A stretch of DNA of 64,000 nt from Psilocybe cubensis (lineage: Eukaryota): contig CM039006.1 in NCBI GenBank assembly GCA_017499595.2, positions 1 through 64,000 of the forward strand, given 5' to 3'. Position 1 is the first letter of the stretch. Each line of letters starts with the position of its first letter. Below, piece after piece: positions 78 through 50,100 of the stretch. The position numbers and the translations under genes were made by a program. The notes beneath the pieces are model-generated. The model made no database searches, had not been told where the DNA came from, and worked only from the letters and a program-made list of their open reading frames with translations.

Positions 78-148
78 CCCTAAACCCTAAACCCTAAACC
101 CTAAACCCTAAACCCTAAACCCTAAACCCTAAACCCTAAACCCTAACC
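78..148 (+). repeat. Telomeric tract (CCCTAAA)n between the unit cut by the window start and unit 1
   Basis: About 9 CCCTAAA repeats plus a CCCTAA variant, running into the element's own telomere-like tract; right boundary approximate. Confidence 0.9.
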
Positions 149-804: not shown

Positions 805-1733
805 CAAGTACTCGTCCTCTCCCAAACTCCTGCCGCTTGTGCCTTCCCAACTCATCCGGGAGCCCTTTCGTCACTGATCTTGCCCTTGACTCGGGGACGT
901 TTCATCGACATGTTGGCTGCCTCACGGCAAGCGGGGCCCTTTTTCTTTCACTCGCTCACGCCTTCTATGTTGGGTTACGGAGGTCATACAAACTCGTTTT
1001 AGTCTAGCTGCGGGGTTATCCAGCTATGATGACTTTGTAATTCGAGGGCGCGCAGTTCTTCAATGGGTATGGACATCAGGTGAGAGTACACTGGGGGTTG
1101 TCAGGACCAGCTCTGCTGGATACGCTCCTGGCAAGTCGGTTGCAGCCGGCGACACTACCGAATTGCTGGGACGTCCTAAAGCTTGTGGGTACCGCCGACC
1201 GCTGGAAACAGCCTAGGCACCGGTGGCGACCGGGTATGGTAACAATCCCCAAGATTCAGCGAAAGCTGGAATGGATAATCAGCAGCGAATCCGTAACGGT
1301 CACGCCGACGGAAGCGTTCAACGACTAGGTGGTAGTGGGGTCTTCGGATCTTAAGATATAGTCTTGGGAGTGGGGAAACCCACATCTGGTATCTAAACCG
1401 CGCCTCGCTGCTTACGAGGACGGCCCGAAGTCCAGAACCGCTTAAAACGCGGGTGACCCGGCCTCCCCTTAGTAAAGGGAGTTAACACAAGGATAGACAA
1501 ATAGTTCGTCGCCGGAAATGAACCTGTGGCTGTAATGGCTGATGTGGCGCCCCTTGGTAAAGGGCTTAAAGGGTATTAGCCTGCCATGTCCAATGGCATG
1601 AGAGTGTCCCTTGGTAAAGGACTTAATAGGCAATAGCCTGCTCTTTTGTCATGAGCGGTATGTAGTGATCGTTTGCCTGTACGGTAGCGCCCATTGCTTG
1701 CACTGGTCCACGCCCGTAAAAAATCACGAGCCG
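805..1733 (+). ncRNA. Group I self-splicing intron, IC1-like, 929 nt, no homing endonuclease ORF
   Basis: P AATTGCTGGGA 1161-1171, Q AATCAGCAGC 1277-1286, R GTTCAACGACTA 1316-1327, S AAGATATAGTC 1353-1363. P3 CACTACC 1153-1159/GGTAGTG 1331-1337; P7 GACTA/TAGTC; P8 with TTCG loop; P9 GTGGG-GAAA-CCCAC. 5' exon ends in T804, intron ends in G1733; IGS GGGGTTGT 1094-1101 pairs with exon ACAGCCCT. Precisely absent from 15 other hammerhead copies. Confidence 0.93.
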
Positions 1734-3001: not shown

Positions 3002-5376
3002 ACGCGCGGTCTAATGTAGTACCTTTTACGTCGGTAAGACCCGCCTTCCCCAACTCTATTCCTGACGATATACTCACCATGACTAAAACAGACGCAGTTT
3101 CTTTTGTACACTTACATACGCCGATCTCATTCTTGTTGGCTGGCCAGTATCGTAGTAGTGTACACTGTAGTCCTGGTGTGGTGGTCCCTGTAGATATAGC
3201 AAATGATTTGTCACTCGGACTCAATTATATGTTTTTTACTCTGCCTTCTCAAAGTCTGATCATGCAAGCATGGAATGATTTTCAACGAAGAATAAGATGG
3301 CGTATCTATTTTTTGTTTAAGGAAGGCATGAACAAACCTTTTGATCCAGATTACGGAGTAAGCTCAAAAAAGAAAGAGAAACCTCCAGTATTACCGCAAT
3401 ACATGGAACTTGGCCTTTCGATGGGACGTCGGTACGTGCAACGCACGATCGCAAGTATCCCGGAAGAAGCCCTTACGGAGATGCGAAAGCACGCGTTCTC
3501 TCCTAAAAGGGACAAGATCCGTAAGTTTCTTATCGATAACAACTATGTTATTACGATGACAGATAAGAATCTTGGCCTCGCGGTGTCTGAACGCGACTGG
3601 ATATTAAGGAATGAGCTCAATCTTCTTGAAGATGAACGTAACTATGAAGAGTTAGAATTCGAAGTTGCGCAAGAAGTAATGAAGAGCAAAATGATCCAGA
3701 TGCAAACTCTTGCACGTACCGTCGAAGATGAACATCTGTTTCTATTTGAACTTGGGTTGTCTCGATTCTTTCTATCGAATGTACCGGAAGACGGATCATC
3801 GTTCAAGTATCCTCAATTTCATGGTATACCTAAAATCCACAAAAAACCTACTGGATTTAGGCCCATAATTCCGTGTCACTCTGTAGTATTTAATCCTGCA
3901 GCCAAGTTTGTATCAAAAGAGCTTAAGCCGATTATTAAATCGACTCCTTCAATCATTCACGGAACGAAGGATCTCTTTACGAGATTAAGCCAATTGCGTA
4001 TAGACCCCAAACGACAATGGTATTTTGTCACCGGGGATGTAGTTGCTTTCTATCCCAATATTCCGTTGGACTTGTGCATCGAAATCGTTTGTAATATGTA
4101 CGAGGAATGGTTACTCAACGCTTCGGAAGAAAACACTGCATTAGCCCATATTAATCCAAATTCGTTAGAGAATAACTTGGTTAAATTGGGCATCTTTAAA
4201 CGTGCTATCGAGATTGGCAATACGCAATTGATAACACAACATGGGTCTAGATATTTTAGACAAAAAAATGGCCTCGCAATGGGCGTCGCGGATTCTCCGG
4301 ACCTTGCTAACCTCTTTGGAGCCCATTTTGAAATAAAGTCAAAAATCTTAGACCACCCAAACGTGGCCTTCTATGGAAGGTACATCGACGATTGTTTCGC
4401 AATTGTTTACGCCGAGTCCGAAGCACTTGCACTTAATCTTATTAAAGAAACAATAAAGTTCGATGGTTGTGTTATCGAATGGGCTGTTTCCTCGTCGGGA
4501 TGTCAATTTCTCGATGCTTTCATATTCAAGGAGTCTGGAAAACTTCATTGGAAGCCATTTGTCAAGACAGGAAACAACCGAGAACGAGTTCCATGGGTAT
4601 CACATCATCCTTTGGACGTCAAACGTGGCGTCTACATTGGAGAGTTATCCAGGTTAGCCGTGCTATGTAGTACCAAGGAAATCTACATCGGAGCAATTAG
4701 AGACCTTAACGCTCTCTATTTGATGCGCGGTTATCCCGAAAACCTAGTCATGTCTTGGTGTAAGAAGAATATACAAGAACGTTGGGAAAAGCGATTCGCT
4801 TTACGAGTCGCAGAGCACGACGAATCCATTCTTGTACTTAAAACCAGATTTGATCAGGTATGGAATTGGTTTTCAGCTGCTGAACTTGGAAAAACTGTTA
4901 CCGAGTACTGGTCGGCATGGTATGAACATGCCGAGAAAGGTTTGTATAGTGCAGACTCGTCCAGACCCCTTATCAAACCAGATCCAAATTACGTTCACGA
5001 CCTCGATGATGTTCGCCCGGAGCTGTTCACACAGATCCTCGTGGACGGAGAAACTGAGTTCGTACCGGATTTGAGGAAGATAGGACTACTCGGAAGTCGT
5101 TGGATAGTATCGCGAAAACGCAATACTAATCTTTTCGACCTTGCAAATGTGTGGAAGAAAACAGTCTTTCGTAAACTGGATGAAGACATCGCTGAAAAAG
5201 GTGGTGTTGTTCCCGAAACTCAAAACGTTAATGAAACTTATCATTCTGCTTTAGTTGAAGCTGCTGAACAGATAAGTATCGAAAGTGATAACGAGATAAT
5301 ACTTCATAGACGTTCAATCTCACAAGAGAGGGAACATCCAGAATTCGGCAGAATATCCAAATCTTACAACCGATGA
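1846..5376 (+). CDS. Penelope-like element ORF1-RT protein, 1176 aa, subfamily A
   Basis: TDKN, FHGIPKIHK, FRPII, FVTGDVVAFYPNI, RQKNGLAMGVADSPDLANLF, YGRYIDD, FLD, then PLE-like thumb HHPLDVKRG; no endonuclease, RNase H or integrase motifs seen. Confidence 0.95.
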   Translation: MSSTYSAAFSRAMSPTLDALTQAVVNNTVFGVNDEAGRHNALIDELATVVIKKIAECRSIDQIVDCVFFDYRAALREFLLNLASWCDKRETVKASLERLELAVSAGNTPNRLRVKAPEFQLTKEFADAGSAEALRVSSTFSTARDVFQKAINDGAIQAKKDELAFWDDKCALNNCYEAAALIVKTTYDDRKSSYKLPVFSTDNKGVRRITDWVVSPQKKAECSALQTILPAIFSHIKQIVNLRHRALAIKIEKKRSTAATADVEMADATKPGPSIQSLIDKGLNARLKKLNLGSVGKKASSRNPSPIILDTNYYSNYPDFVWPEFVQGSSTSGQESWPFEIQTLVDAFAEEAPNQGFQQGRQQEEREGESSRQERSKGKGKGKSLDARSNVVPFTSVRPAFPNSIPDDILTMTKTDAVSFVHLHTPISFLLAGQYRSSVHCSPGVVVPVDIANDLSLGLNYMFFTLPSQSLIMQAWNDFQRRIRWRIYFLFKEGMNKPFDPDYGVSSKKKEKPPVLPQYMELGLSMGRRYVQRTIASIPEEALTEMRKHAFSPKRDKIRKFLIDNNYVITMTDKNLGLAVSERDWILRNELNLLEDERNYEELEFEVAQEVMKSKMIQMQTLARTVEDEHLFLFELGLSRFFLSNVPEDGSSFKYPQFHGIPKIHKKPTGFRPIIPCHSVVFNPAAKFVSKELKPIIKSTPSIIHGTKDLFTRLSQLRIDPKRQWYFVTGDVVAFYPNIPLDLCIEIVCNMYEEWLLNASEENTALAHINPNSLENNLVKLGIFKRAIEIGNTQLITQHGSRYFRQKNGLAMGVADSPDLANLFGAHFEIKSKILDHPNVAFYGRYIDDCFAIVYAESEALALNLIKETIKFDGCVIEWAVSSSGCQFLDAFIFKESGKLHWKPFVKTGNNRERVPWVSHHPLDVKRGVYIGELSRLAVLCSTKEIYIGAIRDLNALYLMRGYPENLVMSWCKKNIQERWEKRFALRVAEHDESILVLKTRFDQVWNWFSAAELGKTVTEYWSAWYEHAEKGLYSADSSRPLIKPDPNYVHDLDDVRPELFTQILVDGETEFVPDLRKIGLLGSRWIVSRKRNTNLFDLANVWKKTVFRKLDEDIAEKGGVVPETQNVNETYHSALVEAAEQISIESDNEIILHRRSISQEREHPEFGRISKSYNR
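5201..5254 (+). other. 54-nt in-frame GT-AG spliceosomal intron near the ORF end (retained in most copies)
   Basis: GTGGTG...TTCTGCTTTAG; precisely absent at the 22082/22083 junction (GCTGAAAAAG|TTGAAGCT). Confidence 0.7.
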
Positions 5377-5425
5377 AAAGAATACTAGCGCGTAAGGCGT
5401 AAAGCATTAGAAAAAAACCCTAACC

Positions 5426-5488
5426 GTAAGTATTCCTTGCTACAAAGTAACAAACATCTACTTACAAGCAACACATTGGATTAAATAG
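5426..5488 (+). other. 63-nt GT-AG spliceosomal intron in the 3' UTR (retained in most copies)
   Basis: GTAAGT...TACTTAC...AATAG; precisely absent at the 22253/22254 junction (CCCTAACC|CTAAACC). Confidence 0.85.
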
Positions 5489-6079: not shown

Positions 6080-6155
6080 AAGAATAGCCACTGAAGAGTC
6101 TATAAAGACGAAAGGGCTGGCTGCTGATAACAATCAACAGCCCTCTGGCCTTCTT
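6080..6155 (+). ncRNA. Intact type I hammerhead ribozyme, predicted cleavage after C6145 (equivalent C17 at 10291, 15180, 15658, 16866, 17570, 21987, 22917, 27334, 28132, 32543, 36193, 38927, 42189, 42897)
   Basis: GCCA-CTGAAGA-GTCT(ATAA)AGAC-GAAA-GGGCTG...CAGCCC-TC-TGGC; distal stem III covaries between subfamilies (TGAT/ATCA vs TGGG/CCCA). Confidence 0.92.
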
Positions 6156-6224
6156 TCCATTTAACTCACAGTTTAAACAAGTCGCTCGCACCTCGCTTCG
6201 CTCGGTGCTCGCTCCCCCCCTAAA

Positions 6225-9200
6225 TCTCCTCAACCTCGCATCGTGGTGCGATAAGAGGGAAACAGTCAAGGCTAGCCTCGAGCGCCTTGAACTTGCCGTT
6301 AGCGCAGGCAACACCCCCAATCGCCTTCGGGTGAAGGCTCCCGAGTTCCAACTTACGAAGGAATTCGCGGATGCCGGGTCAGCGGAAGCTCTTCGAGTTT
6401 CCTCTACGTTCTCCACCGCTCGTGATGTCTTCCAAAAGGCAATCAACGACGGCGCCATTCAGGCGAAAAAGGACGAACTGGCCTTTTGGGATGATAAATG
6501 CGCACTCAATAACTGTTATGAAGCTGCTGCCCTCATCGTTAAGACAACTTACGATGATCGCAAATCCAGCTATAAGCTCCCCGTTTTCTCTACAGACAAC
6601 AAGGGAGTTCGTCGAATAACAGATTGGGTAGTGTCACCGCAGAAGAAGGCTGAATGCAGCGCATTGCAAACCATTTTGCCAGCCATCTTCTCTCATATCA
6701 AACAGATTGTCAACTTGCGCCACCGCGCTTTGGCAATCAAGATTGAGAAAAAGCGGTCGACTGCGGCAACAGCCGATGTCGAGATGGCCGATGCGACCAA
6801 ACCAGGTCCATCGATTCAATCCCTTATTGATAAGGGCTTGAATGCACGTCTCAAGAAGCTCAACCTTGGATCTGTGGGCAAGAAGGCAAGTTCTCGTAAC
6901 CCTTCACCCATAATTCTGGATACTAATTACTATTCTAATTACCCAGACTTTGTCTGGCCAGAATTCGTCCAAGGCTCCTCAACCTCAGGCCAAGAAAGCT
7001 GGCCCTTCGAAATTCAAACCCTCGTCGACGCCTTCGCAGAAGAAGCCCCAAACCAAGGCTTCCAACAAGGTCGACAACAAGAAGAAAGGGAAGGGGAGAG
7101 CTCCCGTCAAGAACGATCCAAAGGGAAAGGGAAAGGCAAGAGCCTAGACGCGCGGTCTAATGTAGTACCTTTTACGTCGGTAAGACCCGCCTTCCCCAAC
7201 TCTATTCCTGACGATATACTCACCATGACTAAAACAGACGCAGTTTCTTTTGTACACTTACATACGCCGATCTCATTCTTGTTGGCTGGCCAGTATCGTA
7301 GTAGTGTACACTGTAGTCCTGGTGTGGTGGTCCCTGTAGATATAGCAAATGATTTGTCACTCGGACTCAATTATATGTTTTTTACTCTGCCTTCTCAAAG
7401 TCTGATCATGCAAGCATGGAATGATTTTCAACGAAGAATAAGATGGCGTATCTATTTTTTGTTTAAGGAAGGCATGAACAAACCTTTTGATCCAGATTAC
7501 GGAGTAAGCTCAAAAAAGAAAGAGAAACCTCCAGTATTACCGCAATACATGGAACTTGGCCTTTCGATGGGACGTCGGTACGTGCAACGCACGATCGCAA
7601 GTATCCCGGAAGAAGCCCTTACGGAGATGCGAAAGCACGCGTTCTCTCCTAAAAGGGACAAGATCCGTAAGTTTCTTATCGATAACAACTATGTTATTAC
7701 GATGACAGATAAGAATCTTGGCCTCGCGGTGTCTGAACGCGACTGGATATTAAGGAATTAGCTCAATCTTCTTGAAGATGAACGTAACTATGAAGAGTTA
7801 GAATTCGAAGTTGCGCAAGAAGTAATGAAGAGCAAAATGATCCAGATGCAAACTCTTGCACGTACCGTCGAAGATGAACATCTGTTTCTATTTGAACTTG
7901 GGTTGTCTCGATTCTTTCTATCGAATGTACCGGAAGACGGATCATCGTTCAAGTATCCTCAATTTCATGGTATACCTAAAATCCACAAAAAACCTACTGG
8001 ATTTAGGCCCATAATTCCGTGTCACTCTGTAGTATTTAATCCTGCAGCCAAGTTTGTATCAAAAGAGCTTAAGCCGATTATTAAATCGACTCCTTCAATC
8101 ATTCACGGAACGAAGGATCTCTTTACGAGATTAAGCCAATTGCGTATAGACCCCAAACGACAATGGTATTTTGTCACCGGGGATGTAGTTGCTTTCTATC
8201 CCAATATTCCGTTGGACTTGTGCATCGAAATCGTTTGTAATATGTACGAGGAATGGTTACTCAACGCTTCGGAAGAAAACACTGCATTAGCCCATATTAA
8301 TCCAAATTCGTTAGAGAATAACTTGGTTAAATTGGGCATCTTTAAACGTGCTATCGAGATTGGCAATACGCAATTGATAACACAACATGGGTCTAGATAT
8401 TTTAGACAAAAAAATGGCCTCGCAATGGGCGTCGCGGATTCTCCGGACCTTGCTAACCTCTTTGGAGCCCATTTTGAAATAAAGTCAAAAATCTTAGACC
8501 ACCCAAACGTGGCCTTCTATGGAAGGTACATCGACGATTGTTTCGCAATTGTTTACGCCGAGTCCGAAGCACTTGCACTTAATCTTATTAAAGAAACAAT
8601 AAAGTTCGATGGTTGTGTTATCGAATGGGCTGTTTCCTCGTCGGGATGTCAATTTCTCGATGCTTTCATATTCAAGGAGTCTGGAAAACTTCATTGGAAG
8701 CCATTTGTCAAGACAGGAAACAACCGAGAACGAGTTCCATGGGTATCACATCATCCTTTGGACGTCAAACGTGGCGTCTACATTGGAGAGTTATCCAGGT
8801 TAGCCGTGCTATGTAGTACCAAGGAAATCTACATCGGAGCAATTAGAGACCTTAACGCTCTCTATTTGATGCGCGGTTATCCCGAAAACCTAGTCATGTC
8901 TTGGTGTAAGAAGAATATACAAGAACGTTGGGAAAAGCGATTCGCTTTACGAGTCGCAGAGCACGACGAATCCATTCTTGTACTTAAAACCAGATTTGAT
9001 CAGGTATGGAATTGGTTTTCAGCTGCTGAACTTGGAAAAACTGTTACCGAGTACTGGTCGGCATGGTATGAACATGCCGAGAAAGGTTTGTATAGTGCAG
9101 ACTCGTCCAGACCCCTTATCAAACCAGATCCAAATTACGTTCACGACCTCGATGATGTTCGCCCGGAGCTGTTCACACAGATCCTCGTGGACGGAGAAAC

Positions 9201-9522
9201 TGAGTTCGTACCGGATTTGAGGAAGATAGGACTACTCGGAAGTCGTTGGATAGTATCGCGAAAACGCAATACTAATCTTTTCGACCTTGCAAATGTGTGG
9301 AAGAAAACAGTCTTTCGTAAACTGGATGAAGACATCGCTGAAAAAGGTGGTGTTGTTCCCGAAACTCAAAACGTTAATGAAACTTATCATTCTGCTTTAG
9401 TTGAAGCTGCTGAACAGATAAGTATCGAAAGTGATAACGAGATAATACTTCATAGACGTTCAATCTCACAAGAGAGGGAACATCCAGAATTCGGCAGAAT
9501 ATCCAAATCTTACAACCGATGA
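6225..9522 (+). pseudogene. Truncated ORF1-RT with nonsense mutation
   Basis: GAG>TAG at 7759-7761 splits the frame into the 518-aa and 565-aa ORFs; start missing. Confidence 0.9.
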
Positions 9523-10410: not shown

Positions 10411-10768
10411 AAACCCACATCTGGTATCTAAACCGCGCCTCGCTGCTTACGAGGACGGCCCGAAGTCCAGAACCGCTTAAAACGCGGGTGACCCGGCCTC
10501 CCCTTAGTAAAGGGAGTTAACACAAGGATGGACAAATAGTTCGTCGCCGGAAATGAACCTGTGGCTGTAATGGCTGATGTGGCGCCCCTTGGTAAAGGGC
10601 TTAAAGGGTATTAGCCTGCCATGTCCAATGGCATGAGAGTGTCCCTTGGTAAAGGACTTAATAGGCAATAGCCTGCTCTTTTGTCATGAGCGGTATGTAG
10701 TGATCGTTTGCCTGTACGGTAGCGCCCATTGCTTGCACTGGTCCACGCCCGTAAAAAATCACGAGCCG
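10411..10768 (+). ncRNA. 5'-truncated second copy of the group I intron (P9 loop to terminal G)
   Basis: Matches 1376-1733 with one substitution noticed (10530); catalytic core missing. Confidence 0.88.
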
Positions 10769-15747: not shown

Positions 15748-16944
15748 GATCCTCGTGGACGGAGAAACTGAGTTCGTACCGGATTTGAGGAAGATAGGAC
15801 TACTCGGAAGTCGTTGGATAGTATCGCGAAAACGCAATACTAATCTTTTCGACCTTGCAAATGTGTGGAAGAAAACAGTCTTTCGTAAACTGGATGAAGA
15901 CATCGCTGAAAAAGGTGGTGTTGTTCCCGAAACTCAAAACGTTAATGAAACTTATCATTCTGCTTTAGTTGAAGCTGCTGAGCAGATAAGTATCGAAAGT
16001 GATAACGAGATAATACTTCATAGACGTTCAATCTCACAAGAGAGGGAACATCCAGAATTTGGCAGAATATCCAAATCTTACAACCGATGAAAAGAATACT
16101 AGCGCTTAAGGCGTAAAGCATTAGAAAAAAACCCTAACCGTAAGTATTCCTTGCTATAAAGTAACAAACATCTACTTACAAGCAACACATTGGATTGAAT
16201 AGCTAAACCTAAACCTAAACCCTAAACCCTAAACCCTAAACCCTAACCTAACCCCAACCCTAAGCTAACTAAGTCTAACCTTAGTAGGAAGTAAGGTAGG
16301 CGTGTGAACTTCCGAACGGCATGTGATTGTGAAGGGCCGGATCTAATTTAGTACATGGGAAAAGTTACTTAGTACTTCGGGAAAAGTTCCTTAGTACCGT
16401 GGAAACATTTTTGATGGACCGGATCATGAACTGTCCAATTAAGATTCACAACAATCAATCATTCTATTGTTTGATTGTTAGGTAAGGACCCAGGTAAGTT
16501 ATTTATACTCTAGACATGTGAATATTCCCATGTCGCGGTTACTCGGAGCCACGTAACCAGAGTAATCTATATCCATGTGATTCACATCACAGTCAATAAC
16601 CCACGATGTCAAAGAACAAAAGTGTTGGATCCACTTTTGACAGGTTACCATGTGCCACATCGACCCGTGACACTCTGTTCATCAGAGACCTGTCTAACTT
16701 GACAATAAACATTGACAGATTTGTGATAGTCGGTAAGATACATGACAGCTGCGCAGCATCACTTCACGCGCTGTCATCGGATGTCTAGAACATTCCTTCT
16801 AAGAATAGCCACTGAAGAGTCTATAAAGACGAAAGGGCTGGTTGTTGGGATCCCCCAACAGCCCTCTGGCTACTTTCCATTTAACTCCCAGTTTAAACTA
16901 GTCGCTCGCACCTCGCTTCGCTCGGTGCTCGCTCCCCCCCTAAA
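15748..16944 (+). mobile_element. Unit 5 (subfamily B), last ~113 codons of the ORF plus 3' UTR
   Basis: Junction TAAACCC|GATCCTCGTGG; B-type UTR variants. Confidence 0.88.
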
Positions 16945-19900
16945 CCCTAACCTAACCCCAACCCTAAGCTAACTAAGTCTAACCTTAGTAGGAAGTAAGG
17001 TAGGCGTGTGAACTTCCGAACGGCATGTGATTGTGAAGGGCCGGATCTAATTTAGTACATGGGAAAAGTTACTTAGTACTTCGGGAAAAGTTCCTTAGTA
17101 CCGTGGAAACATTTTTGATGGACCGGATCATGAACTGTCCAATTAAGATTCACAACAATCAATCATTCTATTGTTTGATTGTTAGGTAAGGACCCAGGTA
17201 AGTTATTTATACTCTAGACATGTGAATATTCCCATGTCGCGGTTACTCGGAGCCACGTAACCAGAGTAATCTATATCCATGTGATTCACATCACAGTCAA
17301 TAACCCACGATGTCAAAGAACAAAAGTGTTGGATCCACTTTTGACAGGTTACCATGTGCCACATCGACCCGTGACACTCTGTTCATCAGAGACCTGTCTA
17401 ACTTGACAATAAACATTGACAGATTTGTGATAGTCGGTAAGATACATGACAGCTGCGCAGCATCACTTCACGCGCTGTCATCGGATGTCTAGAACATTCC
17501 TTCTAAGAATAGCCACTGAAGAGTCTATAAAGACGAAAGGGCTGGTTGTTGGGATCCCCCAACAGCCCTCTGGCTACTTTCCATTTAACTCCCAGTTTAA
17601 ACTAGTCGCTCGCACCTCGCTTCGCTCGGTGCTCGCTCCCCCCCTAAACCCAACGACTTTGCTATTATCCATCAGCCACTATGTCATCTCAATACTCTGC
17701 TGCTTTCTCTCGTGCCATGTCCCCCACCCTGGACGCACTCACCCAGGCCGTCGTCAACAACACCGTTTTCGGCGTCAACGATGAAGCAGGCCGCCATAAC
17801 GCTCTGATCGACGAGCTGGCCACTGTGGTCATCAAAAAAATAGCTGAGTGCCGCTCCGTTGACCAAGTCATAGACTGCGTCTTTTTTGACTATCGTGCTG
17901 CCCTTAGGGAGTTTCTCCTCAACCTCGCATCGTGGTGCGATAAGAGGGAAACAGTCAAGGCTAGCCTCGAGCGCCTTGAATCTGCCGTTAGCGCAGGCAA
18001 CACGCCCAATCGCCTTAAGGTGAAGGCACCCGAGTTCCAACTTACGAAGGAATTCGCGAATGCCGGGTCAGCGGAGGCTCTTCGAGTCTCCACTACGTTC
18101 TCTACCGCTCGTGACGCCTTCCAAAAGGCAATTAACGACGGCGCCATTCAGGCGAAAAAGGACGAGCTGACTTTTTGGGATGATAAATGCGCACTCAACT
18201 CTTGCTACGAAGCTGCTGCCCTCATCGTTAAGGCAACTTACGATGATCGCAAATCCAGCTACAAGCTCCCTGTTTTCTCTACAGATAACAAGGGAGTTCG
18301 ACGTATAGCAGAGTGGGTAGTGTCTCCGCAAAAGAAAGCCGAATGCAGTGCGCTGCAAACCATACTGCCGGCGATCTTTTCTCACATCAAACAAATTGTC
18401 AACATGCGCCACCGCGCTTTGGCAATTAAGATTGAGAAAAAGCGGACGACTGCGGCAACAGCCGATGTCGAGATGGCCGACGCGACCAAACCAGGTCCGT
18501 CGATTCAATCCCTTATTGATAAGGGCTTGAATGCACGTCTCAAGAAGCTCAACCTTGGATCTGTGGGCAAGAAGGCAAGTTTTCGTAACCCTTCACCCAT
18601 AATTCTGGATACTAATTACTACTCTAATTACCCAGACTTTGTCTGGCCAGAATTCATCCAAGGCTCCTCAACCTCAGGCCAAGAAAGCTGGCCCTTCGAA
18701 ACCCAAGTCGTCGTCGACGCCTTCGCAACGCAAGCCTCAAACCAAGGCTTCCAACAAGGTCGACAACAAGAAGAAAGGGAAGGGGAGAGCTCCCGTCAAG
18801 AACGATCCAAAGGGAAAGGGAAAGGCAAGAGCCTAGATGCGCGGTCTAATGTAGTACCTTTTACGTCGGTGAGACCCGCCTTCCCCAACTCTATTCCTGA
18901 CGATATACTCACCATGACTAAAACAGACGCAGTTTCTTTCGTACACTTACATACTCCAATATCATTCTTGTTGGCTGGCCAGTATCGTAGTAGTGTACAT
19001 TGTAGTCCTGGTGTTTCTGTCCCTGTTGATGTAGCAAACGATCTCTCTCTCGGACTTAATTATATGTTTTTCACTCTGCCTTCTAAAAGTCTGATCATGC
19101 AAGCATGGAATGATTTCCAACGAAGAATAAGATGGCGTATCTATTTTTTGTTTAAGGAAGGCATGAATAAACCTTTTGATCCAGATTATGGAGTAAGCTC
19201 AAAAAAGAAAGAGAAACCTCCTGTATTACCGCAATATATGGAACTTGGCCTTTCGATGGGACGTCGGTACGTGCAACGCACGATCGCAAGTATCCCGGAA
19301 GAAGCCCTTACGGAGATGCGAAAGCACGCGTTCTCTCCTAAAAGGGACAAGATCCGTAAGTTTCTTATCGATAACAACTATGTTATTACGATGACAGATA
19401 AGAATCTTGGCCTCGCGGTGTCTGAACGCGACTGGATATTAAGGAATGAGCTCAATCTTCTTGAAGATGAACGTAATTACGAAGAGTTAGAATTCGAAGT
19501 TGCGCAAGAAGTTATGAAGAGCAAAATGATTCAGATGCAAACGCTCGCACGTACTGTCGAAGATGAACATCTGTTTCTATTTGAACTTGGGTTGTCTCGA
19601 TTCTTTCTATCGAATGTACCGGAAGACGGATCATCGTTCAAGTATCCTCAATTTCATGGTATACCTAAAATCCACAAGAAACCTACTGGATTTAGGCCCA
19701 TAATTCCGTGTCACTCTGTAGTATTTAATCCTGCAGCCAAGTTTGTATCAAAAGAGCTTAAGCCGATTATTAAATCGACTCCTTCAATCATACACGGAAC
19801 GAAGGATCTCTTTACGAGATTAAGCCAATTGCGTATAGACTCCAAAAGACAATGGTATTTTGTCACTGGAGATGTAGTTGCTTTCTATCCCAATATTCCG

Positions 19901-22065
19901 TTGGACTTGTGCATCGAAATCGTTTGTAGTATGTACGAGGAATGGTTACTCAACGCTTCGGAAGAAAACACTGCATTAGCCCATATTAATCCAAATTCGT
20001 TAGAGAATAACTTGGTTAAATTGGGCATCTTTAAACGTGCTATCGAGATTGGCAATACGCAATTGATAACACAACATGGGTCTAGATATTTTAGACAAAA
20101 AAATGGCCTCGCAATGGGCGTCGCGGATTCTCCGGACCTTGCTAACCTCTTTGGAGCCCATTTTGAAATAAAGTCAAAAATCTTAGACCACCCAAACGTG
20201 GCCTTCTATGGAAGGTACATCGACGATTGTTTCGCAATTGTTTACGCCGAGTCCGAAGCACTTGCACTTAATCTTATTAAAGAAACAATAAAGTTCGATG
20301 GTTGTGTTATCGAATGGGCTGTTTCCTCGTCGGGATGTCAATTTCTCGATGCTTTCATATTCAAGGAGTCTGGAAAACTTCATTGGAAGCCTTTTGTCAA
20401 GACAGGAAACAACCGAGAACGAGTTCCATGGGTATCACATCATCCTTTGGACGTCAAACGTGGCGTCTACATTGGAGAGTTATCCAGGTTAGCCGTGCTA
20501 TGTAGTACCAAGGAAATCTACATCGGAGCAATTAGAGACCTTAACGCTCTCTATTTGATGCGCGGTTATCCCGAAAACCTAGTCATATCTTGGTGTAAGA
20601 AGAATATACAAGAACGTTGGGAAAAGCGATTCGCTTTACGAGTCGCAGAGCACGACGAATCCATTCTTGTACTTAAAACCAGATTTGATCAGGTATGGAA
20701 TTGGTTTTCAGCTGCTGAACTTGGAAAAACTGTTACCGAGTACTGGTCGGCATGGTATGAACATGCCGAGAAAGGTTTGTATAGTGCAGACTCGTCCAGA
20801 CCCCTTATCAAACCAGATCCAAATTACGTTCACGACCTCGATGATGTTCGCCCGGAGCTGTTCACACAGATCCTCGTGGACGGAGAAACTGAGTTCGTAC
20901 CGGATTTGAGGAAGATAGGACTACTCGGAAGTCGTTGGATAGTATCGCGAAAACGCAATACTAATCTTTTCGACCTTGCAAATGTGTGGAAGAAAACAGT
21001 CTTTCGTAAACTGGATGAAGACATCGCTGAAAAAGGTGGTGTTGTTCCCGAAACTCAAAACGTTAATGAAACTTATCATTCTGCTTTAGTTGAAGCTGCT
21101 GAGCAGATAAGTATCGAAAGTGATAACGAGATAATACTTCATAGACGTTCAATCTCACAAGAGAGGGAACATCCAGAATTTGGCAGAATATCCAAATCTT
21201 ACAACCGATGAAAAGAATACTAGCGCTTAAGGCGTAAAGCATTAGAAAAAAACCCTAACCGTAAGTATTCCTTGCTATAAAGTAACAAACATCTACTTAC
21301 AAGCAACACATTGGATTGAATAGCTAAACCTAAACCTAAACCCTAAACCCTAAACCCTAAACCCTAACCTAACCCCAACCCTAAGCTAACTAAGTCTAAC
21401 CTTAGTAGGAAGTAAGGTAGGCGTGTGAACTTCCGAACGGCATGTGATTGTGAAGGGCCGGATCTAATTTAGTACATGGGAAAAGTTACTTAGTACTTCG
21501 GGAAAAGTTCCTTAGTACCGTGGAAACATTTTTGATGGACCGGATCATGAACTGTCCAATTAAGATTCACAACAATCAATCATTCTATTGTTTGATTGTT
21601 AGGTAAGGACCCAGGTAAGTTATTTATACTCTAGACATGTGAATATTCCCATGTCGCGGTTACTCGGAGCCACGTAACCAGAGTAATCTATATCCATGTG
21701 ATTCACATCACAGTCAATAACCCACGATGTCAAAGAACAAAAGTGTTGGATCCACTTTTGACAGGTTACCATGTGCCACATCGACCCGTGACACTCTGTT
21801 CATCAGAGACCTGTCTAACTTGACAATAAACATTGACAGATTTGTGATAGTCGGTAAGATACATGACAGCTGCGCAGCATCACTTCACGCGCTGTCATCG
21901 GATGTCTAGAACATTCCTTCTAAGAATAGCCACTGAAGAGTCTATAAAGACGAAAGGGCTGGTTGTTGGGATCCCCCAACAGCCCTCTGGCTACTTTCCA
22001 TTTAACTCCCAGTTTAAACTAGTCGCTCGCACCTCGCTTCGCTCGGTGCTCGCTCCCCCCCTAAA
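16945..22065 (+). mobile_element. Unit 6 (subfamily B): partial 3' UTR + intron-less hammerhead + full ORF + 3' UTR
   Basis: UTR repeated at a 4417-bp period; upstream junction CAGCCCT|CTGGCT lacks the group I intron. Confidence 0.9.
17681..21211 (+). CDS. Penelope-like ORF1-RT protein, 1176 aa, subfamily B
   Basis: Same RT motifs; differences from subfamily A concentrated in the N-terminal part. Confidence 0.95.
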   Translation: MSSQYSAAFSRAMSPTLDALTQAVVNNTVFGVNDEAGRHNALIDELATVVIKKIAECRSVDQVIDCVFFDYRAALREFLLNLASWCDKRETVKASLERLESAVSAGNTPNRLKVKAPEFQLTKEFANAGSAEALRVSTTFSTARDAFQKAINDGAIQAKKDELTFWDDKCALNSCYEAAALIVKATYDDRKSSYKLPVFSTDNKGVRRIAEWVVSPQKKAECSALQTILPAIFSHIKQIVNMRHRALAIKIEKKRTTAATADVEMADATKPGPSIQSLIDKGLNARLKKLNLGSVGKKASFRNPSPIILDTNYYSNYPDFVWPEFIQGSSTSGQESWPFETQVVVDAFATQASNQGFQQGRQQEEREGESSRQERSKGKGKGKSLDARSNVVPFTSVRPAFPNSIPDDILTMTKTDAVSFVHLHTPISFLLAGQYRSSVHCSPGVSVPVDVANDLSLGLNYMFFTLPSKSLIMQAWNDFQRRIRWRIYFLFKEGMNKPFDPDYGVSSKKKEKPPVLPQYMELGLSMGRRYVQRTIASIPEEALTEMRKHAFSPKRDKIRKFLIDNNYVITMTDKNLGLAVSERDWILRNELNLLEDERNYEELEFEVAQEVMKSKMIQMQTLARTVEDEHLFLFELGLSRFFLSNVPEDGSSFKYPQFHGIPKIHKKPTGFRPIIPCHSVVFNPAAKFVSKELKPIIKSTPSIIHGTKDLFTRLSQLRIDSKRQWYFVTGDVVAFYPNIPLDLCIEIVCSMYEEWLLNASEENTALAHINPNSLENNLVKLGIFKRAIEIGNTQLITQHGSRYFRQKNGLAMGVADSPDLANLFGAHFEIKSKILDHPNVAFYGRYIDDCFAIVYAESEALALNLIKETIKFDGCVIEWAVSSSGCQFLDAFIFKESGKLHWKPFVKTGNNRERVPWVSHHPLDVKRGVYIGELSRLAVLCSTKEIYIGAIRDLNALYLMRGYPENLVISWCKKNIQERWEKRFALRVAEHDESILVLKTRFDQVWNWFSAAELGKTVTEYWSAWYEHAEKGLYSADSSRPLIKPDPNYVHDLDDVRPELFTQILVDGETEFVPDLRKIGLLGSRWIVSRKRNTNLFDLANVWKKTVFRKLDEDIAEKGGVVPETQNVNETYHSALVEAAEQISIESDNEIILHRRSISQEREHPEFGRISKSYNR

Positions 22066-22071
22066 CCCTAA

Positions 22072-25000
22072 CGCTGAAAAAGTTGAAGCTGCTGAGCAGA
22101 TAAGTATCGAAAGTGATAACGAGATAATACTTCATAGACGTTCAATCTCACAAGAGAGGGAACATCCAGAATTTGGCAGAATATCCAAATCTTACAACCG
22201 ATGAAAAGAATACTAGCGCTTAAGGCGTAAAGCATTAGAAAAAAACCCTAACCCTAAACCTAAACCTAAACCCTAAACCCTAAACCCTAAACCCTAACCT
22301 AACCCCAACCCTAAGCTAACTAAGTCTAACCTTAGTAGGAAGTAAGGTAGGCGTGTGAACTTCCGAACGGCATGTGATTGTGAAGGGCCGGATCTAATTT
22401 AGTACATGGGAAAAGTTACTTAGTACTTCGGGAAAAGTTCCTTAATACCGTGGAAACATTTTTGATGGACCGGATCATGAACTGTCCAATTAAGATTCAC
22501 AACAATCAATCATTCTATTGTTTGATTGTTAGGTAAGGACCCAGGTAAGTTATTTATACTCTAGACATGTGAATATTCCCATGTCGCGGTTACTCGGAGC
22601 CACGTAACCATAGTAATCTATATCCATGTGATTCACATCACAGTCAATAACCCACGATGTCAAAGAACAAAAGTGTTGGATCCACTTTTGACAGGTTACC
22701 ATGTGCCACATCGACCCGTGACACTCTGTTCATCAGAGACCTGTCTAACTTGACAATAAACATTGACAGATTTGTGATAGTCGGTAAGATACATGACAGC
22801 TGCGCAGCATCACTTCACGCGCTGTCATCGGATGTCTAGAACATTCCTTCTAAGAATAGCCACTGAAGAGTCTATAAAGACGAAAGGGCTGGTTGTTGGG
22901 ATCCCCCAACAGCCCTCTGGCTACTTTCCATTTAACTCCCAGTTTAAACTAGTCGCTCGCACCTCGCTTCGCTCGGTGCTCGCTCCCCCCCTAAACCCAA
23001 CGACTTTGCTATTATCCATCAGCCACTATGTCATCTCAATACTCTGCTGCTTTCTCTCGTGCCATGTCCCCCACCCTGGACGCACTCACCCAGGCCGTCG
23101 TCAACAACACCGTTTTCGGCGTCAACGATGAAGCAGGCCGCCATAACGCTCTGATCGACGAGCTGGCCACTGTGGTCATCAAAAAAATAGCTGAGTGCCG
23201 CTCCGTTGACCAAGTCATAGACTGCGTCTTTTTTGACTATCGTGCTGCCCTTAGGGAGTTTCTCCTCAACCTCGCATCGTGGTGCGATAAGAGGGAAACA
23301 GTCAAGGCTAGCCTCGAGCGCCTTGAATCTGCCGTTAGCGCAGGCAACACGCCCAATCGCCTTAAGGTGAAGGCACCCGAGTTCCAACTTACGAAGGAAT
23401 TCGCGAATGCCGGGTCAGCGGAGGCTCTTCGAGTCTCCACTACGTTCTCTACCGCTCGTGACGCCTTCCAAAAGGCAATTAACGACGGCGCCATTCAGGC
23501 GAAAAAGGACGAGCTGACTTTTTGGGATGATAAATGCGCACTCAACTCTTGCTACGAAGCTGCTGCCCTCATCGTTAAGGCAACTTACGATGATCGCAAA
23601 TCCAGCTACAAGCTCCCTGTTTTCTCTACAGATAACAAGGGAGTTCGACGTATAGCAGAGTGGGTAGTGTCTCCGCAAAAGAAAGCCGAATGCAGTGCGC
23701 TGCAAACCATACTGCCGGCGATCTTTTCTCACATCAAACAAATTGTCAACATGCGCCACCGCGCTTTGGCAATTAAGATTGAGAAAAAGCGGACGACTGC
23801 GGCAACAGCCGATGTCGAGATGGCCGACGCGACCAAACCAGGTCCGTCGATTCAATCCCTTATTGATAAGGGCTTGAATGCACGTCTCAAGAAGCTCAAC
23901 CTTGGATCTGTGGGCAAGAAGGCAAGTTTTCGTAACCCTTCACCCATAATTCTGGATACTAATTACTACTCTAATTACCCAGACTTTGTCTGGCCAGAAT
24001 TCATCCAAGGCTCCTCAACCTCAGGCCAAGAAAGCTGGCCCTTCGAAACCCAAGTCGTCGTCGACGCCTTCGCAACGCAAGCCTCAAACCAAGGCTTCCA
24101 ACAAGGTCGACAACAAGAAGAAAGGGAAGGGGAGAGCTCCCGTCAAGAACGATCCAAAGGGAAAGGGAAAGGCAAGAGCCTAGATGCGCGGTCTAATGTA
24201 GTACCTTTTACGTCGGTGAGACCCGCCTTCCCCAACTCTATTCCTGACGATATACTCACCATGACTAAAACAGACGCAGTTTCTTTCGTACACTTACATA
24301 CTCCAATATCATTCTTGTTGGCTGGCCAGTATCGTAGTAGTGTACATTGTAGTCCTGGTGTTTCTGTCCCTGTTGATGTAGCAAACGATCTCTCTCTCGG
24401 ACTTAATTATATGTTTTTCACTCTGCCTTCTAAAAGTCTGATCATGCAAGCATGGAATGATTTCCAACGAAGAATAAGATGGCGTATCTATTTTTTGTTT
24501 AAGGAAGGCATGAATAAACCTTTTGATCCAGATTATGGAGTAAGCTCAAAAAAGAAAGAGAAACCTCCTGTATTACCGCAATATATGGAACTTGGCCTTT
24601 CGATGGGACGTCGGTACGTGCAACGCACGATCGCAAGTATCCCGGAAGAAGCCCTTACGGAGATGCGAAAGCACGCGTTCTCTCCTAAAAGGGACAAGAT
24701 CCGTAAGTTTCTTATCGATAACAACTATGTTATTACGATGACAGATAAGAATCTTGGCCTCGCGGTGTCTGAACGCGACTGGATATTAAGGAATGAGCTC
24801 AATCTTCTTGAAGATGAACGTAATTACGAAGAGTTAGAATTCGAAGTTGCGCAAGAAGTTATGAAGAGCAAAATGATTCAGATGCAAACGCTCGCACGTA
24901 CTGTCGAAGATGAACATCTGTTTCTATTTGAACTTGGGTTGTCTCGATTCTTTCTATCGAATGTACCGGAAGACGGATCATCGTTCAAGTATCCTCAATT

Positions 25001-27412
25001 TCATGGTATACCTAAAATCCACAAGAAACCTACTGGATTTAGGCCCATAATTCCGTGTCACTCTGTAGTATTTAATCCTGCAGCCAAGTTTGTATCAAAA
25101 GAGCTTAAGCCGATTATTAAATCGACTCCTTCAATCATACACGGAACGAAGGATCTCTTTACGAGATTAAGCCAATTGCGTATAGACTCCAAAAGACAAT
25201 GGTATTTTGTCACTGGAGATGTAGTTGCTTTCTATCCCAATATTCCGTTGGACTTGTGCATCGAAATCGTTTGTAGTATGTACGAGGAATGGTTACTCAA
25301 CGCTTCGGAAGAAAACACTGCATTAGCCCATATTAATCCAAATTCGTTAGAGAATAACTTGGTTAAATTGGGCATCTTTAAACGTGCTATCGAGATTGGC
25401 AATACGCAATTGATAACACAACATGGGTCTAGATATTTTAGACAAAAAAATGGCCTCGCAATGGGCGTCGCGGATTCTCCGGACCTTGCTAACCTCTTTG
25501 GAGCCCATTTTGAAATAAAGTCAAAAATCTTAGACCACCCAAACGTGGCCTTCTATGGAAGGTACATCGACGATTGTTTCGCAATTGTTTACGCCGAGTC
25601 CGAAGCACTTGCACTTAATCTTATTAAAGAAACAATAAAGTTCGATGGTTGTGTTATCGAATGGGCTGTTTCCTCGTCGGGATGTCAATTTCTCGATGCT
25701 TTCATATTCAAGGAGTCTGGAAAACTTCATTGGAAGCCTTTTGTCAAGACAGGAAACAACCGAGAACGAGTTCCATGGGTATCACATCATCCTTTGGACG
25801 TCAAACGTGGCGTCTACATTGGAGAGTTATCCAGGTTAGCCGTGCTATGTAGTACCAAGGAAATCTACATCGGAGCAATTAGAGACCTTAACGCTCTCTA
25901 TTTGATGCGCGGTTATCCCGAAAACCTAGTCATATCTTGGTGTAAGAAGAATATACAAGAACGTTGGGAAAAGCGATTCGCTTTACGAGTCGCAGAGCAC
26001 GACGAATCCATTCTTGTACTTAAAACCAGATTTGATCAGGTATGGAATTGGTTTTCAGCTGCTGAACTTGGAAAAACTGTTACCGAGTACTGGTCGGCAT
26101 GGTATGAACATGCCGAGAAAGGTTTGTATAGTGCAGACTCGTCCAGACCCCTTATCAAACCAGATCCAAATTACGTTCACGACCTCGATGATGTTCGCCC
26201 GGAGCTGTTCACACAGATCCTCGTGGACGGAGAAACTGAGTTCGTACCGGATTTGAGGAAGATAGGACTACTCGGAAGTCGTTGGATAGTATCGCGAAAA
26301 CGCAATACTAATCTTTTCGACCTTGCAAATGTGTGGAAGAAAACAGTCTTTCGTAAACTGGATGAAGACATCGCTGAAAAAGGTGGTGTTGTTCCCGAAA
26401 CTCAAAACGTTAATGAAACTTATCATTCTGCTTTAGTTGAAGCTGCTGAGCAGATAAGTATCGAAAGTGATAACGAGATAATACTTCATAGACGTTCAAT
26501 CTCACAAGAGAGGGAACATCCAGAATTTGGCAGAATATCCAAATCTTACAACCGATGAAAAGAATACTAGCGCTTAAGGCGTAAAGCATTAGAAAAAAAC
26601 CCTAACCGTAAGTATTCCTTGCTATAAAGTAACAAACATCTACTTACAAGCAACACATTGGATTGAATAGCTAAACCTAAACCTAAACCCTAAACCCTAA
26701 ACCCTAAACCCTAACCTAACCCCAACCCTAAGCTAACTAAGTCTAACCTTAGTAGGAAGTAAGGTAGGCGTGTGAACTTCCGAACGGCATGTGATTGTGA
26801 AGGGCCGGATCTAATTTAGTACATGGGAAAAGTTACTTAGTACTTCGGGAAAAGTTCCTTAATACCGTGGAAACATTTTTGATGGACCGGATCATGAACT
26901 GTCCAATTAAGATTCACAACAATCAATCATTCTATTGTTTGATTGTTAGGTAAGGACCCAGGTAAGTTATTTATACTCTAGACATGTGAATATTCCCATG
27001 TCGCGGTTACTCGGAGCCACGTAACCAGAGTAATCTATATCCATGTGATTCACATCACAGTCAATAACCCACGATGTCAAAGAACAAAAGTGTTGGATCC
27101 ACTTTTGACAGGTTACCATGTGCCACATCGACCCGTGACACTCTGTTCATCAGAGACCTGTCTAACTTGACAATAAACATTGACAGATTTGTGATAGTCG
27201 GTAAGATACATGACAGCTGCGCAGCATCACTTCACGCGCTGTCATCGGATGTCTAGAACATTCCTTCTAAGAATAGCCACTGAAGAGTCTATAAAGACGA
27301 AAGGGCTGGTTGTTGGGATCCCCCAACAGCCCTCTGGCTACTTTCCATTTAACTCCCAGTTTAAACTAGTCGCTCGCACCTCGCTTCGCTCGGTGCTCGC
27401 TCCCCCCCTAAA
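22072..27412 (+). mobile_element. Unit 7 (subfamily B): spliced ORF end/3' UTR + full unspliced ORF + 3' UTR
   Basis: Upstream part lacks the 54-nt and 63-nt introns; downstream part retains both. Confidence 0.88.
23028..26558 (+). CDS. Penelope-like ORF1-RT protein, 1176 aa, subfamily B
   Basis: Translation matches 17681-21211. Confidence 0.95.
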   Translation: MSSQYSAAFSRAMSPTLDALTQAVVNNTVFGVNDEAGRHNALIDELATVVIKKIAECRSVDQVIDCVFFDYRAALREFLLNLASWCDKRETVKASLERLESAVSAGNTPNRLKVKAPEFQLTKEFANAGSAEALRVSTTFSTARDAFQKAINDGAIQAKKDELTFWDDKCALNSCYEAAALIVKATYDDRKSSYKLPVFSTDNKGVRRIAEWVVSPQKKAECSALQTILPAIFSHIKQIVNMRHRALAIKIEKKRTTAATADVEMADATKPGPSIQSLIDKGLNARLKKLNLGSVGKKASFRNPSPIILDTNYYSNYPDFVWPEFIQGSSTSGQESWPFETQVVVDAFATQASNQGFQQGRQQEEREGESSRQERSKGKGKGKSLDARSNVVPFTSVRPAFPNSIPDDILTMTKTDAVSFVHLHTPISFLLAGQYRSSVHCSPGVSVPVDVANDLSLGLNYMFFTLPSKSLIMQAWNDFQRRIRWRIYFLFKEGMNKPFDPDYGVSSKKKEKPPVLPQYMELGLSMGRRYVQRTIASIPEEALTEMRKHAFSPKRDKIRKFLIDNNYVITMTDKNLGLAVSERDWILRNELNLLEDERNYEELEFEVAQEVMKSKMIQMQTLARTVEDEHLFLFELGLSRFFLSNVPEDGSSFKYPQFHGIPKIHKKPTGFRPIIPCHSVVFNPAAKFVSKELKPIIKSTPSIIHGTKDLFTRLSQLRIDSKRQWYFVTGDVVAFYPNIPLDLCIEIVCSMYEEWLLNASEENTALAHINPNSLENNLVKLGIFKRAIEIGNTQLITQHGSRYFRQKNGLAMGVADSPDLANLFGAHFEIKSKILDHPNVAFYGRYIDDCFAIVYAESEALALNLIKETIKFDGCVIEWAVSSSGCQFLDAFIFKESGKLHWKPFVKTGNNRERVPWVSHHPLDVKRGVYIGELSRLAVLCSTKEIYIGAIRDLNALYLMRGYPENLVISWCKKNIQERWEKRFALRVAEHDESILVLKTRFDQVWNWFSAAELGKTVTEYWSAWYEHAEKGLYSADSSRPLIKPDPNYVHDLDDVRPELFTQILVDGETEFVPDLRKIGLLGSRWIVSRKRNTNLFDLANVWKKTVFRKLDEDIAEKGGVVPETQNVNETYHSALVEAAEQISIESDNEIILHRRSISQEREHPEFGRISKSYNR

Positions 27413-27475
27413 CCCTAAACCCTAAACCCTAAACCCTAAACCCTAAACCCTAAACCCTAACCCTAAACCCTAAAC

Positions 27476-50000: not shown

Positions 50001-50100
50001 NNNNNNNNNNNNNNNNNNNNNNNNNNNNNNNNNNNNNNNNNNNNNNNNNNNNNNNNNNNNNNNNNNNNNNNNNNNNNNNNNNNNNNNNNNNNNNNNNNNN
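50001..50100. other. Assembly gap (100 N)
   Basis: Run of N. Confidence 1.

Follow-up and report, generated by a model that had tools for sequence, protein, structure and literature searches.

Putative copies of spliced leader RNA in the 5' terminal repeats of a telomeric Penelope-like element of Psilocybe cubensis

The left end of contig C9 of the Psilocybe cubensis genome (46.6 Mb, 21 contigs) was analyzed as a window of 64,000 nucleotides, the whole stretch of DNA considered here. Bases 1-43050 of this window are made up of head-to-tail segments of one retroelement, with CCCTAAA repeats between them. The arrays of this element lie at chromosome ends, are polarised and have telomere repeats as joins, which are among the features by which we identify it as a Coprina-type, endonuclease-less Penelope-like element (the clade name is given by resemblance). 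One segment, 22072-22998, had been singled out from the letters alone (hereafter the sequence-only reading) as lacking exactly two GT...AG intervals that the other copies spanning the region keep, and both statements held. Specifically, in the coordinates of the reference copy in the window (ref), 22072-22082 correspond to ref 5190-5200 and are joined straight to the equivalent of ref 5255, the 54-nt GT...AG interval ref 5201-5254 (intron 1; 18 codons, in frame) being gone. At junction 22253/22254 the equivalent of ref 5425 is joined to that of 5489, and the 63-nt GTAAGT...AG interval ref 5426-5488 (intron 2) is gone. Both losses are base-exact, and all 10 of the other copies that run across this region in the window retain both intervals. 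Loss of intron 2 also leaves the telomere-like tract at 22243-22314 continuous across the junction, the fusion that had been described. On the other hand, the segment is not the free-standing copy it was taken for: on its sequence layout it is the 5' pseudo-long terminal repeat (pLTR), that is, the upstream terminal repeat, of unit 22072-27418, whose 3' end retains both introns. The reading we prefer, with a probability of about 0.85, is that the segment was reverse-transcribed from the 5' leader of the element's sense RNA after that leader had been spliced.

Taken by itself, this locus would also allow the gaps to be DNA-level microhomology deletions or telomere-healing joins that resemble splicing. 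The match before junction 1 is just 11 bases long, the dinucleotide AG is common to both sides there, and junction 2 falls within telomere-like sequence, a 6-nt variant unit of which makes up 17 of 404 added repeats. Because the upstream match is so short, exact patterns of both junctions were searched in the whole genome. Junction 1 was found spliced at three places (C2, C9, C13) versus 212 unspliced donors, and junction 2 with its full upstream anchor at two (C3, C9) versus 221. The C13 copy belongs to another subfamily and has lost intron 1 while keeping intron 2; the C3 copy shows the reverse. These events are independent, since the subfamilies and the telomere joins differ and either intron can be lost alone, and a census of the arrays added further independent events on C7, C10 and C13, so that spliced copies of both junctions do exist at other chromosome ends. 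Long segments of unexpected length were screened for internal gaps (group I-start segments and those under 900 nt were left out), and none of at least 15 nt was detected besides intron 2. Conservation of intron 2 was followed among 33 related metagenome loci, 15 of which were analysed; nine of these, from about six distinct families, could be scored and the other six could not. The donor GTAAG(T/C) lies just past a telomere-like unit in eight of the nine scored relatives by pattern and in the ninth by eye, and some 60 nt downstream of it an AG opens into further telomere-like sequence. The splice signals are thus conserved while the intron's interior and length vary, and on this comparison intron 2 is old. 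Deletion or healing at the DNA level is exceedingly improbable in view of base-exact junctions that recur in independent copies, alone or together, the lack of other internal gaps in the screened segments, the conserved signals and the strict polarity set out below. An assembly or long-read error deserves practically no credence: the array is highly repetitive, and its adjacent units 16938-22071 and 22285-27418 share 99.94% identity across 5.1 kb, but an error would not delete two GT-AG intervals base-exactly, nor recur with different flanks on five contigs. The genomic patterns support both deletions as products of splicing, and the intervals as spliceosomal-type GT-AG introns.

The census covered 833 kb of telomeric arrays (window included) with 313 priming tracts, and took in 176 of the 221 intron 2 donors and 171 of the 212 intron 1 donors. 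Segments were classed as 5' pLTRs when the C-rich tract continues into the open reading frame (ORF), and as 3' ends when the tract is followed by telomere repeats; the group I-bearing left end of C12 was classed as 5' because its degenerate tract continues into the ORF. Intron 1 was spliced in three of the seven 5' pLTRs spanning the site versus none of 161 3' ends (p=4.5e-5). For intron 2, splicing was sure in five 5' pLTRs, in two of which an A-run is the only anchor; 13 were likely spliced by a spliced-type short junction and eight were unspliced, which makes 18 spliced among the 26 informative cases; 19 more reach the exon start without a spliced-type join and 46 stop inside the tract. Among 3' ends, 167 were unspliced, none was spliced and 14 were uninformative. 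The sure cases alone give 5/13 versus 0/167 (p=9e-7), and 13 of the 32 eligible cases have the spliced-type join, far above the background frequency of its unit (17/404, p=2e-10). The counts contain arrays duplicated by recombination or assembly (C18 repeats the right end of C9), and because of these duplicates the p-values overstate independence. Within the arrays scored, spliced forms are shown by the junction sequences only in 5' pLTRs, where they are common; the occasional use of spliced RNA that the sequence-only reading proposed does not describe them. This polarity also bears on whether an unspliced copy could have lost its introns later, by gene conversion with cDNA of spliced RNA and apart from copy formation. 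A reverse transcriptase and many homologous targets are present, and either intron is lost alone, as conversion would allow. It should, however, also strike the far commoner 3' copies (0/167 and 0/161), and it would not yield three telomere joins at 9-15 nt from junction 1, which makes it very improbable.

Among 101 full units examined, the U regions of a unit's two pLTRs were identical in 68 of 80 scorable cases, compared with about 13% identity among random pairs and 24 of 119 for neighbours with telomere repeats between them. Seven haplotypes were found only in both pLTRs of one single unit, and the pLTRs of unit 22072-27418 have a rare variant in common (three carriers in the fetched set). 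As the pLTRs are matched but differently processed, they point to one source whose sense RNA was processed in different ways. Such matching would also be expected if the 5' pLTR arose when the reverse transcriptase went a second lap round a single RNA circle, produced by the hammerhead ribozymes that flank the unit, and some copies do span two full lengths while short segments begin near the predicted cut site. The two laps should then match in processing as well, yet the first keeps both introns and the second is without them, so that one RNA circle copied twice is excluded for these copies, segment 22072-22998 included. Likewise, a group I intron, described further below, occurs in 52 of 112 scored 5' pLTRs and in none of 192 scored 3' ends. 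A circle can apply only to the intron-free, unspliced subset and is improbable as the explanation of the 5' pLTR.

The three intron-1-spliced copies begin 9, 11 and 15 nt upstream of junction 1, which is also where one unspliced segment of the 3' class starts. Because all three spliced copies end there, we infer, as a conditional argument, a transcript start near ref 5186-5192, about 10-15 nt before intron 1 and inside the 3' end of the ORF. Passages on Penelope and Chlamys-3 likewise place the transcript start within the pLTR and describe a leader intron (PMC2377424, PMC8557442). Under the reading of the segment as a spliced leader copy, transcription would begin at this position, and the element's reverse transcriptase would prime on the chromosome end at the C-rich tract. 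The unspliced 3' end and the ORF would be copied first and the processed leader of the same source element afterwards, in segment 22072-22998 to the very 5' end, before telomerase caps the product. Most copies would stop at the telomere-like tract, which is lengthened by splicing of intron 2, and the exposed leader RNA would be the target of the mobile group I intron. The processed leader may have been reached by a switch to a short sibling leader RNA, a tentative proposal that we place somewhat below even odds; such a template switch accounts for ectopic insertions in leaders and for shuffled intron variants. Another route, only slightly less likely, is one longer-than-unit transcript from a single-pLTR template, such as a DNA circle or a direct tandem; splicing of this transcript would begin at its 5' end. 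This accounts for the matched ends and for the few copies with two full lengths, and requires the 3' group I copy always to be removed before priming.

Several observations weigh against the preferred reading. Support for intron 1 consists of three events with 9-15 nt anchors and a weak donor; in the relatives this donor overlaps Gly codons, is GT in some and GC in others, and the acceptor is not clearly kept. Eight 5' pLTRs keep intron 2 and four keep intron 1. The two pLTRs differ in 12 of the 80 scorable pairs, and the rare variant of unit 22072-27418 has its third carrier on C6, while the unit's own pLTRs differ at one other base. A plain cluster test on 49 distinct 5' ends was not significant alone (p=0.14). 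The segment had earlier been called direct evidence of an RNA intermediate; genomic sequence is the evidence here, and it supports both the splicing products and the copying via sense RNA. Coordinates of the features discussed are collected in Table 1.

Table 1. Features of the spliced segment, its unit and the related copies in the window
Feature	Position	Strand	Remarks
Priming tract of preceding unit and one added telomere-type repeat	22055..22071	+	Distal end of spliced copy
Putative mini first exon, 11 nt, ref 5190-5200	22072..22082	+	Inferred 5' end of leader RNA
Putative second exon, 171 nt, ref 5255-5425	22083..22253	+	ORF end and start of untranslated region, serving as leader
Telomere-like tract	22243..22314	+	Continuous through loss of intron 2 (junction 22253/22254)
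Type I hammerhead ribozyme of 5' pLTR, intact	22859..22921	+	Predicted cut after 22917; empty group I intron site 22916/22917
C-rich priming tract	22985..22998	+	Continues into ORF, marking segment as 5' pLTR
1187-aa frame, reverse transcriptase	22995..26558	+	First ATG 23028; no Pfam endonuclease match
Intron 1, retained	26383..26436	+	3' end of unit 22072-27418
Intron 2, retained	26608..26670	+	3' pLTR of unit 22072-27418
3' pLTR of unit 22072-27418	26671..27418	+	U region with one difference from 5' pLTR and common rare variant
Intron 1, reference copy, 54 nt	5201..5254	+	Weak GTGGTG donor; in frame in ORF
Intron 2, reference copy, 63 nt	5426..5488	+	GTAAGT donor; position conserved in relatives
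Spliced-type intron 2 junction at start of another 5' pLTR	138..148	+	Short anchor; probable
Group I intron, 929 nt, of 5' pLTR	805..1733	+	In hammerhead cleavage triplet (between U and C); guide 1094-1101
3' part of group I intron	10411..10768	+	Second, truncated 5' pLTR

The pLTR has a hammerhead adjoining a reverse-complement telomeric tract. The hammerhead motif was recognised in 19 of the 33 related loci by conservation and by descriptor match to the core consensus; a free fold of a sister copy formed stems II and III and not stem I, and an Rfam search did not report a hammerhead. Several very short segments in the C2, C8, C10, C13 and C14 arrays begin within about 10 nt of the predicted cut site, a sequence hint of hammerhead cleavage in vivo. 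The intron that interrupts the cleavage triplet matches the group I core P3-P9 of Rfam RF00028 at 1008-1385 (73 bits, gathering score 50, E 1.1e-17). Its 5' exon ends in U and the intron in G, no target duplication is seen, and no frame exceeds 108 aa. An unconstrained fold pairs U804 with G1094, and on this fold evidence an earlier candidate guide (1012-1017) was dropped in favour of 1094-1101. The boundary rules also hold at an ectopic site on C2 and at two loci of a distant family (L142 and L143), both described below. In its P1 extension the intron carries a 12-nt stretch that is perfectly antisense to the hammerhead core (861-872 versus 6107-6118).

The genome holds 48 exact starts of this group I intron: 45 at the hammerhead site, one ectopic within the element and two behind another intron copy; none of them interrupts an rRNA gene, as nuclear ribosomal DNA (rDNA) introns do. 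Intron copies are 1-2 nt from the commonest types, host U regions are up to 29 nt apart, and identical intron variants occur in different host variants. This pattern suggests that the intron moves between host variants. At the right end of C2 (L011), an intron-1-spliced leader carries a complete ectopic copy without duplication; it is inserted 4 nt upstream of the intron 2 donor, at a site that forms six pairs with the guide. A truncated ectopic copy near 8272 at the left end of C6 shows only its 3' join, into the telomere-like tract; both ectopic insertions are within 5' pLTRs. Near 3107806 at the right end of C9 there is a head-to-tail dimer that joins the last G to the first base, its two copies being identical, and it is seen again near 44242 on C18; since C18 repeats the C9 array, the two probably represent one event.

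A distant family (28-32% protein identity, one metagenome) provides a second case. Its locus L142 has a 1139-nt group I intron (452-1590, 57 bits) 5-6 nt downstream of its hammerhead cut site; placement inside the cleavage triplet was ruled out by the intron-free L143 copy. The 3' part of a group I intron lies upstream of the ORF in L141 and L143, and the 3' pLTR of L143 is without the intron. The introns of the element and of L142 have a hairpin module of 35-39 nt in common. The other 30 related loci, mostly single collapsed units, gave no group I match at the gathering score. In viral contigs there was no match to the core motif, and three matches to a 19-nt hairpin module were rejected, as no group I or reverse transcriptase match accompanied them. 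Contig C21 (GC 0.30), which is AT-rich and probably mitochondrial, carries two other group I introns (L151, L152) with short, weak similarity to that of the element. From these sequences it is rather probable that the 5' pLTR is rebuilt each round from processed leader, that the group I intron enters this leader by reverse splicing, for the most part at the hammerhead but at times at telomere-like AACCCU sites, and that the reverse transcriptase fixes it in the chromosome. On this view the ectopic copies and the dimer would preserve a natural trace, outside rDNA, of the whole route from reverse splicing through reverse transcription to integration, and the distant family, with its independent insertion next to the hammerhead, would indicate a recurring niche.

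Passages of PMC8557442 and PMC4209133 describe the endonuclease-deficient Coprina and Athena elements as resembling this one in their arrays at chromosome ends, reverse transcriptase without endonuclease, pLTRs, retained introns, and reverse-complement telomeric repeats adjoining a type I hammerhead with a long helix III. The P. cubensis element differs from these descriptions in that its genomic copies record spliced RNA, in the 5' pLTR only, and in the group I intron of the pLTR. Neither spliced genomic copies nor a group I intron in such elements was found in the titles, abstract starts and passages of the literature searched; the primary papers of 2003, 2007 and 2017 may describe spliced copies. 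According to parts of PMC2377424 and PMC8557442, Penelope of Drosophila virilis and Chlamys-3_cRei also start transcription within the pLTR, shortly before a leader intron, and have a partial-tandem layout in which one copy's 3' end is the next copy's leader. Unlike the present element, they have a GIY-YIG endonuclease and are described there as retaining the intron upon transposition. For Penelope no obvious mechanism of pLTR regeneration is given in the part of PMC2377424 that treats it, whereas the P. cubensis pLTRs are matched within units. A further likeness, from the same source, is with HeT-A and TART of Drosophila, which form head-to-tail arrays at chromosome ends and are driven by a promoter in the 3' portion of the copy upstream (PMC2377424). 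HeT-A and TART are non-LTR elements of a host that has no telomerase, whereas P. cubensis copies have telomere repeats added between them.

With nuclear rDNA group I introns, as portrayed in passages of PMC3679873 and PMC8395846, the P. cubensis intron has in common an RF00028 core above the gathering score, a U.G pair at the 5' splice site, a terminal G and a full-length head-to-tail junction that resembles intron circles. It differs in lying outside rDNA, in the ribozyme of a retroelement, and in having no long ORF and genomic ectopic insertions. According to a passage of PMC3679873, as of 2013 every known nuclear group I intron lay within an rRNA gene, and evidence for the full pathway of reverse splicing was still missing. 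In P. cubensis, the same leader bears homing-like, ectopic and dimeric insertions, which bears on group I mobility without an endonuclease. How introns survive retrotransposition was left between an antisense template and an unspliced sense template in the part of PMC3846280 that raises it; the spliced sense copies show that, for the 5' pLTR at least, the template was sense, and that intron retention is specific to the 3' end. As for the regeneration of pLTRs, matched and differently processed pLTRs suggest either a longer-than-unit transcript or a switch of template. Intron survival, pLTR regeneration and group I movement, three open points of Penelope-like elements, are therefore testable in one genome. 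The meaning of the segment, as read from these sequences, is larger than an occasional use of spliced RNA: the two ends of the element are built from differently processed RNA. In addition, a conserved intron that builds a telomere-like tract upon splicing may set the capping point of a new copy's outer end.

The reading frame of unit 22072-27418 is intact and contains the reverse transcriptase. RVT_1 was matched by Pfam in two of 18 aligned members (best E 6.6e-7), and the window protein itself gave no Pfam match. A precomputed PF00078 assignment exists on a protein matched at 99% identity, the closest named proteins (98-100% identical) are from Psilocybe cubensis, and the YIDD motif is invariant. 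No Pfam match to a GIY-YIG endonuclease was obtained in any of the 18 members, Pfam sensitivity being low for this family, and a PDB search with the protein returned a single weak match (E 0.13). In the copy at 6106-9522, a stop codon splits the frame into 551 and 586 aa. The remainder of the window (43051-64000) is unique DNA that is broken by an N gap at 50001-50100 and holds two frames of at least 150 aa. Elsewhere in the genome, an array repeated as its inverted mirror and element copies deep within contigs were seen at the right end of C4 (4.10-4.15 Mb), on C7 (about 59-67 kb, 106 kb, 3.09 Mb and 3.43 Mb), on C2 (4.24-4.28 Mb) and on C8 (3.24-3.26 Mb); the copies well within contigs are perhaps old chromosome ends. 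In the metagenome contigs L115, L122 and L128 the ORF match runs over both contig ends, with the hammerhead inside in two of them, a layout as expected, on sequence, of collapsed tandem or circular units.
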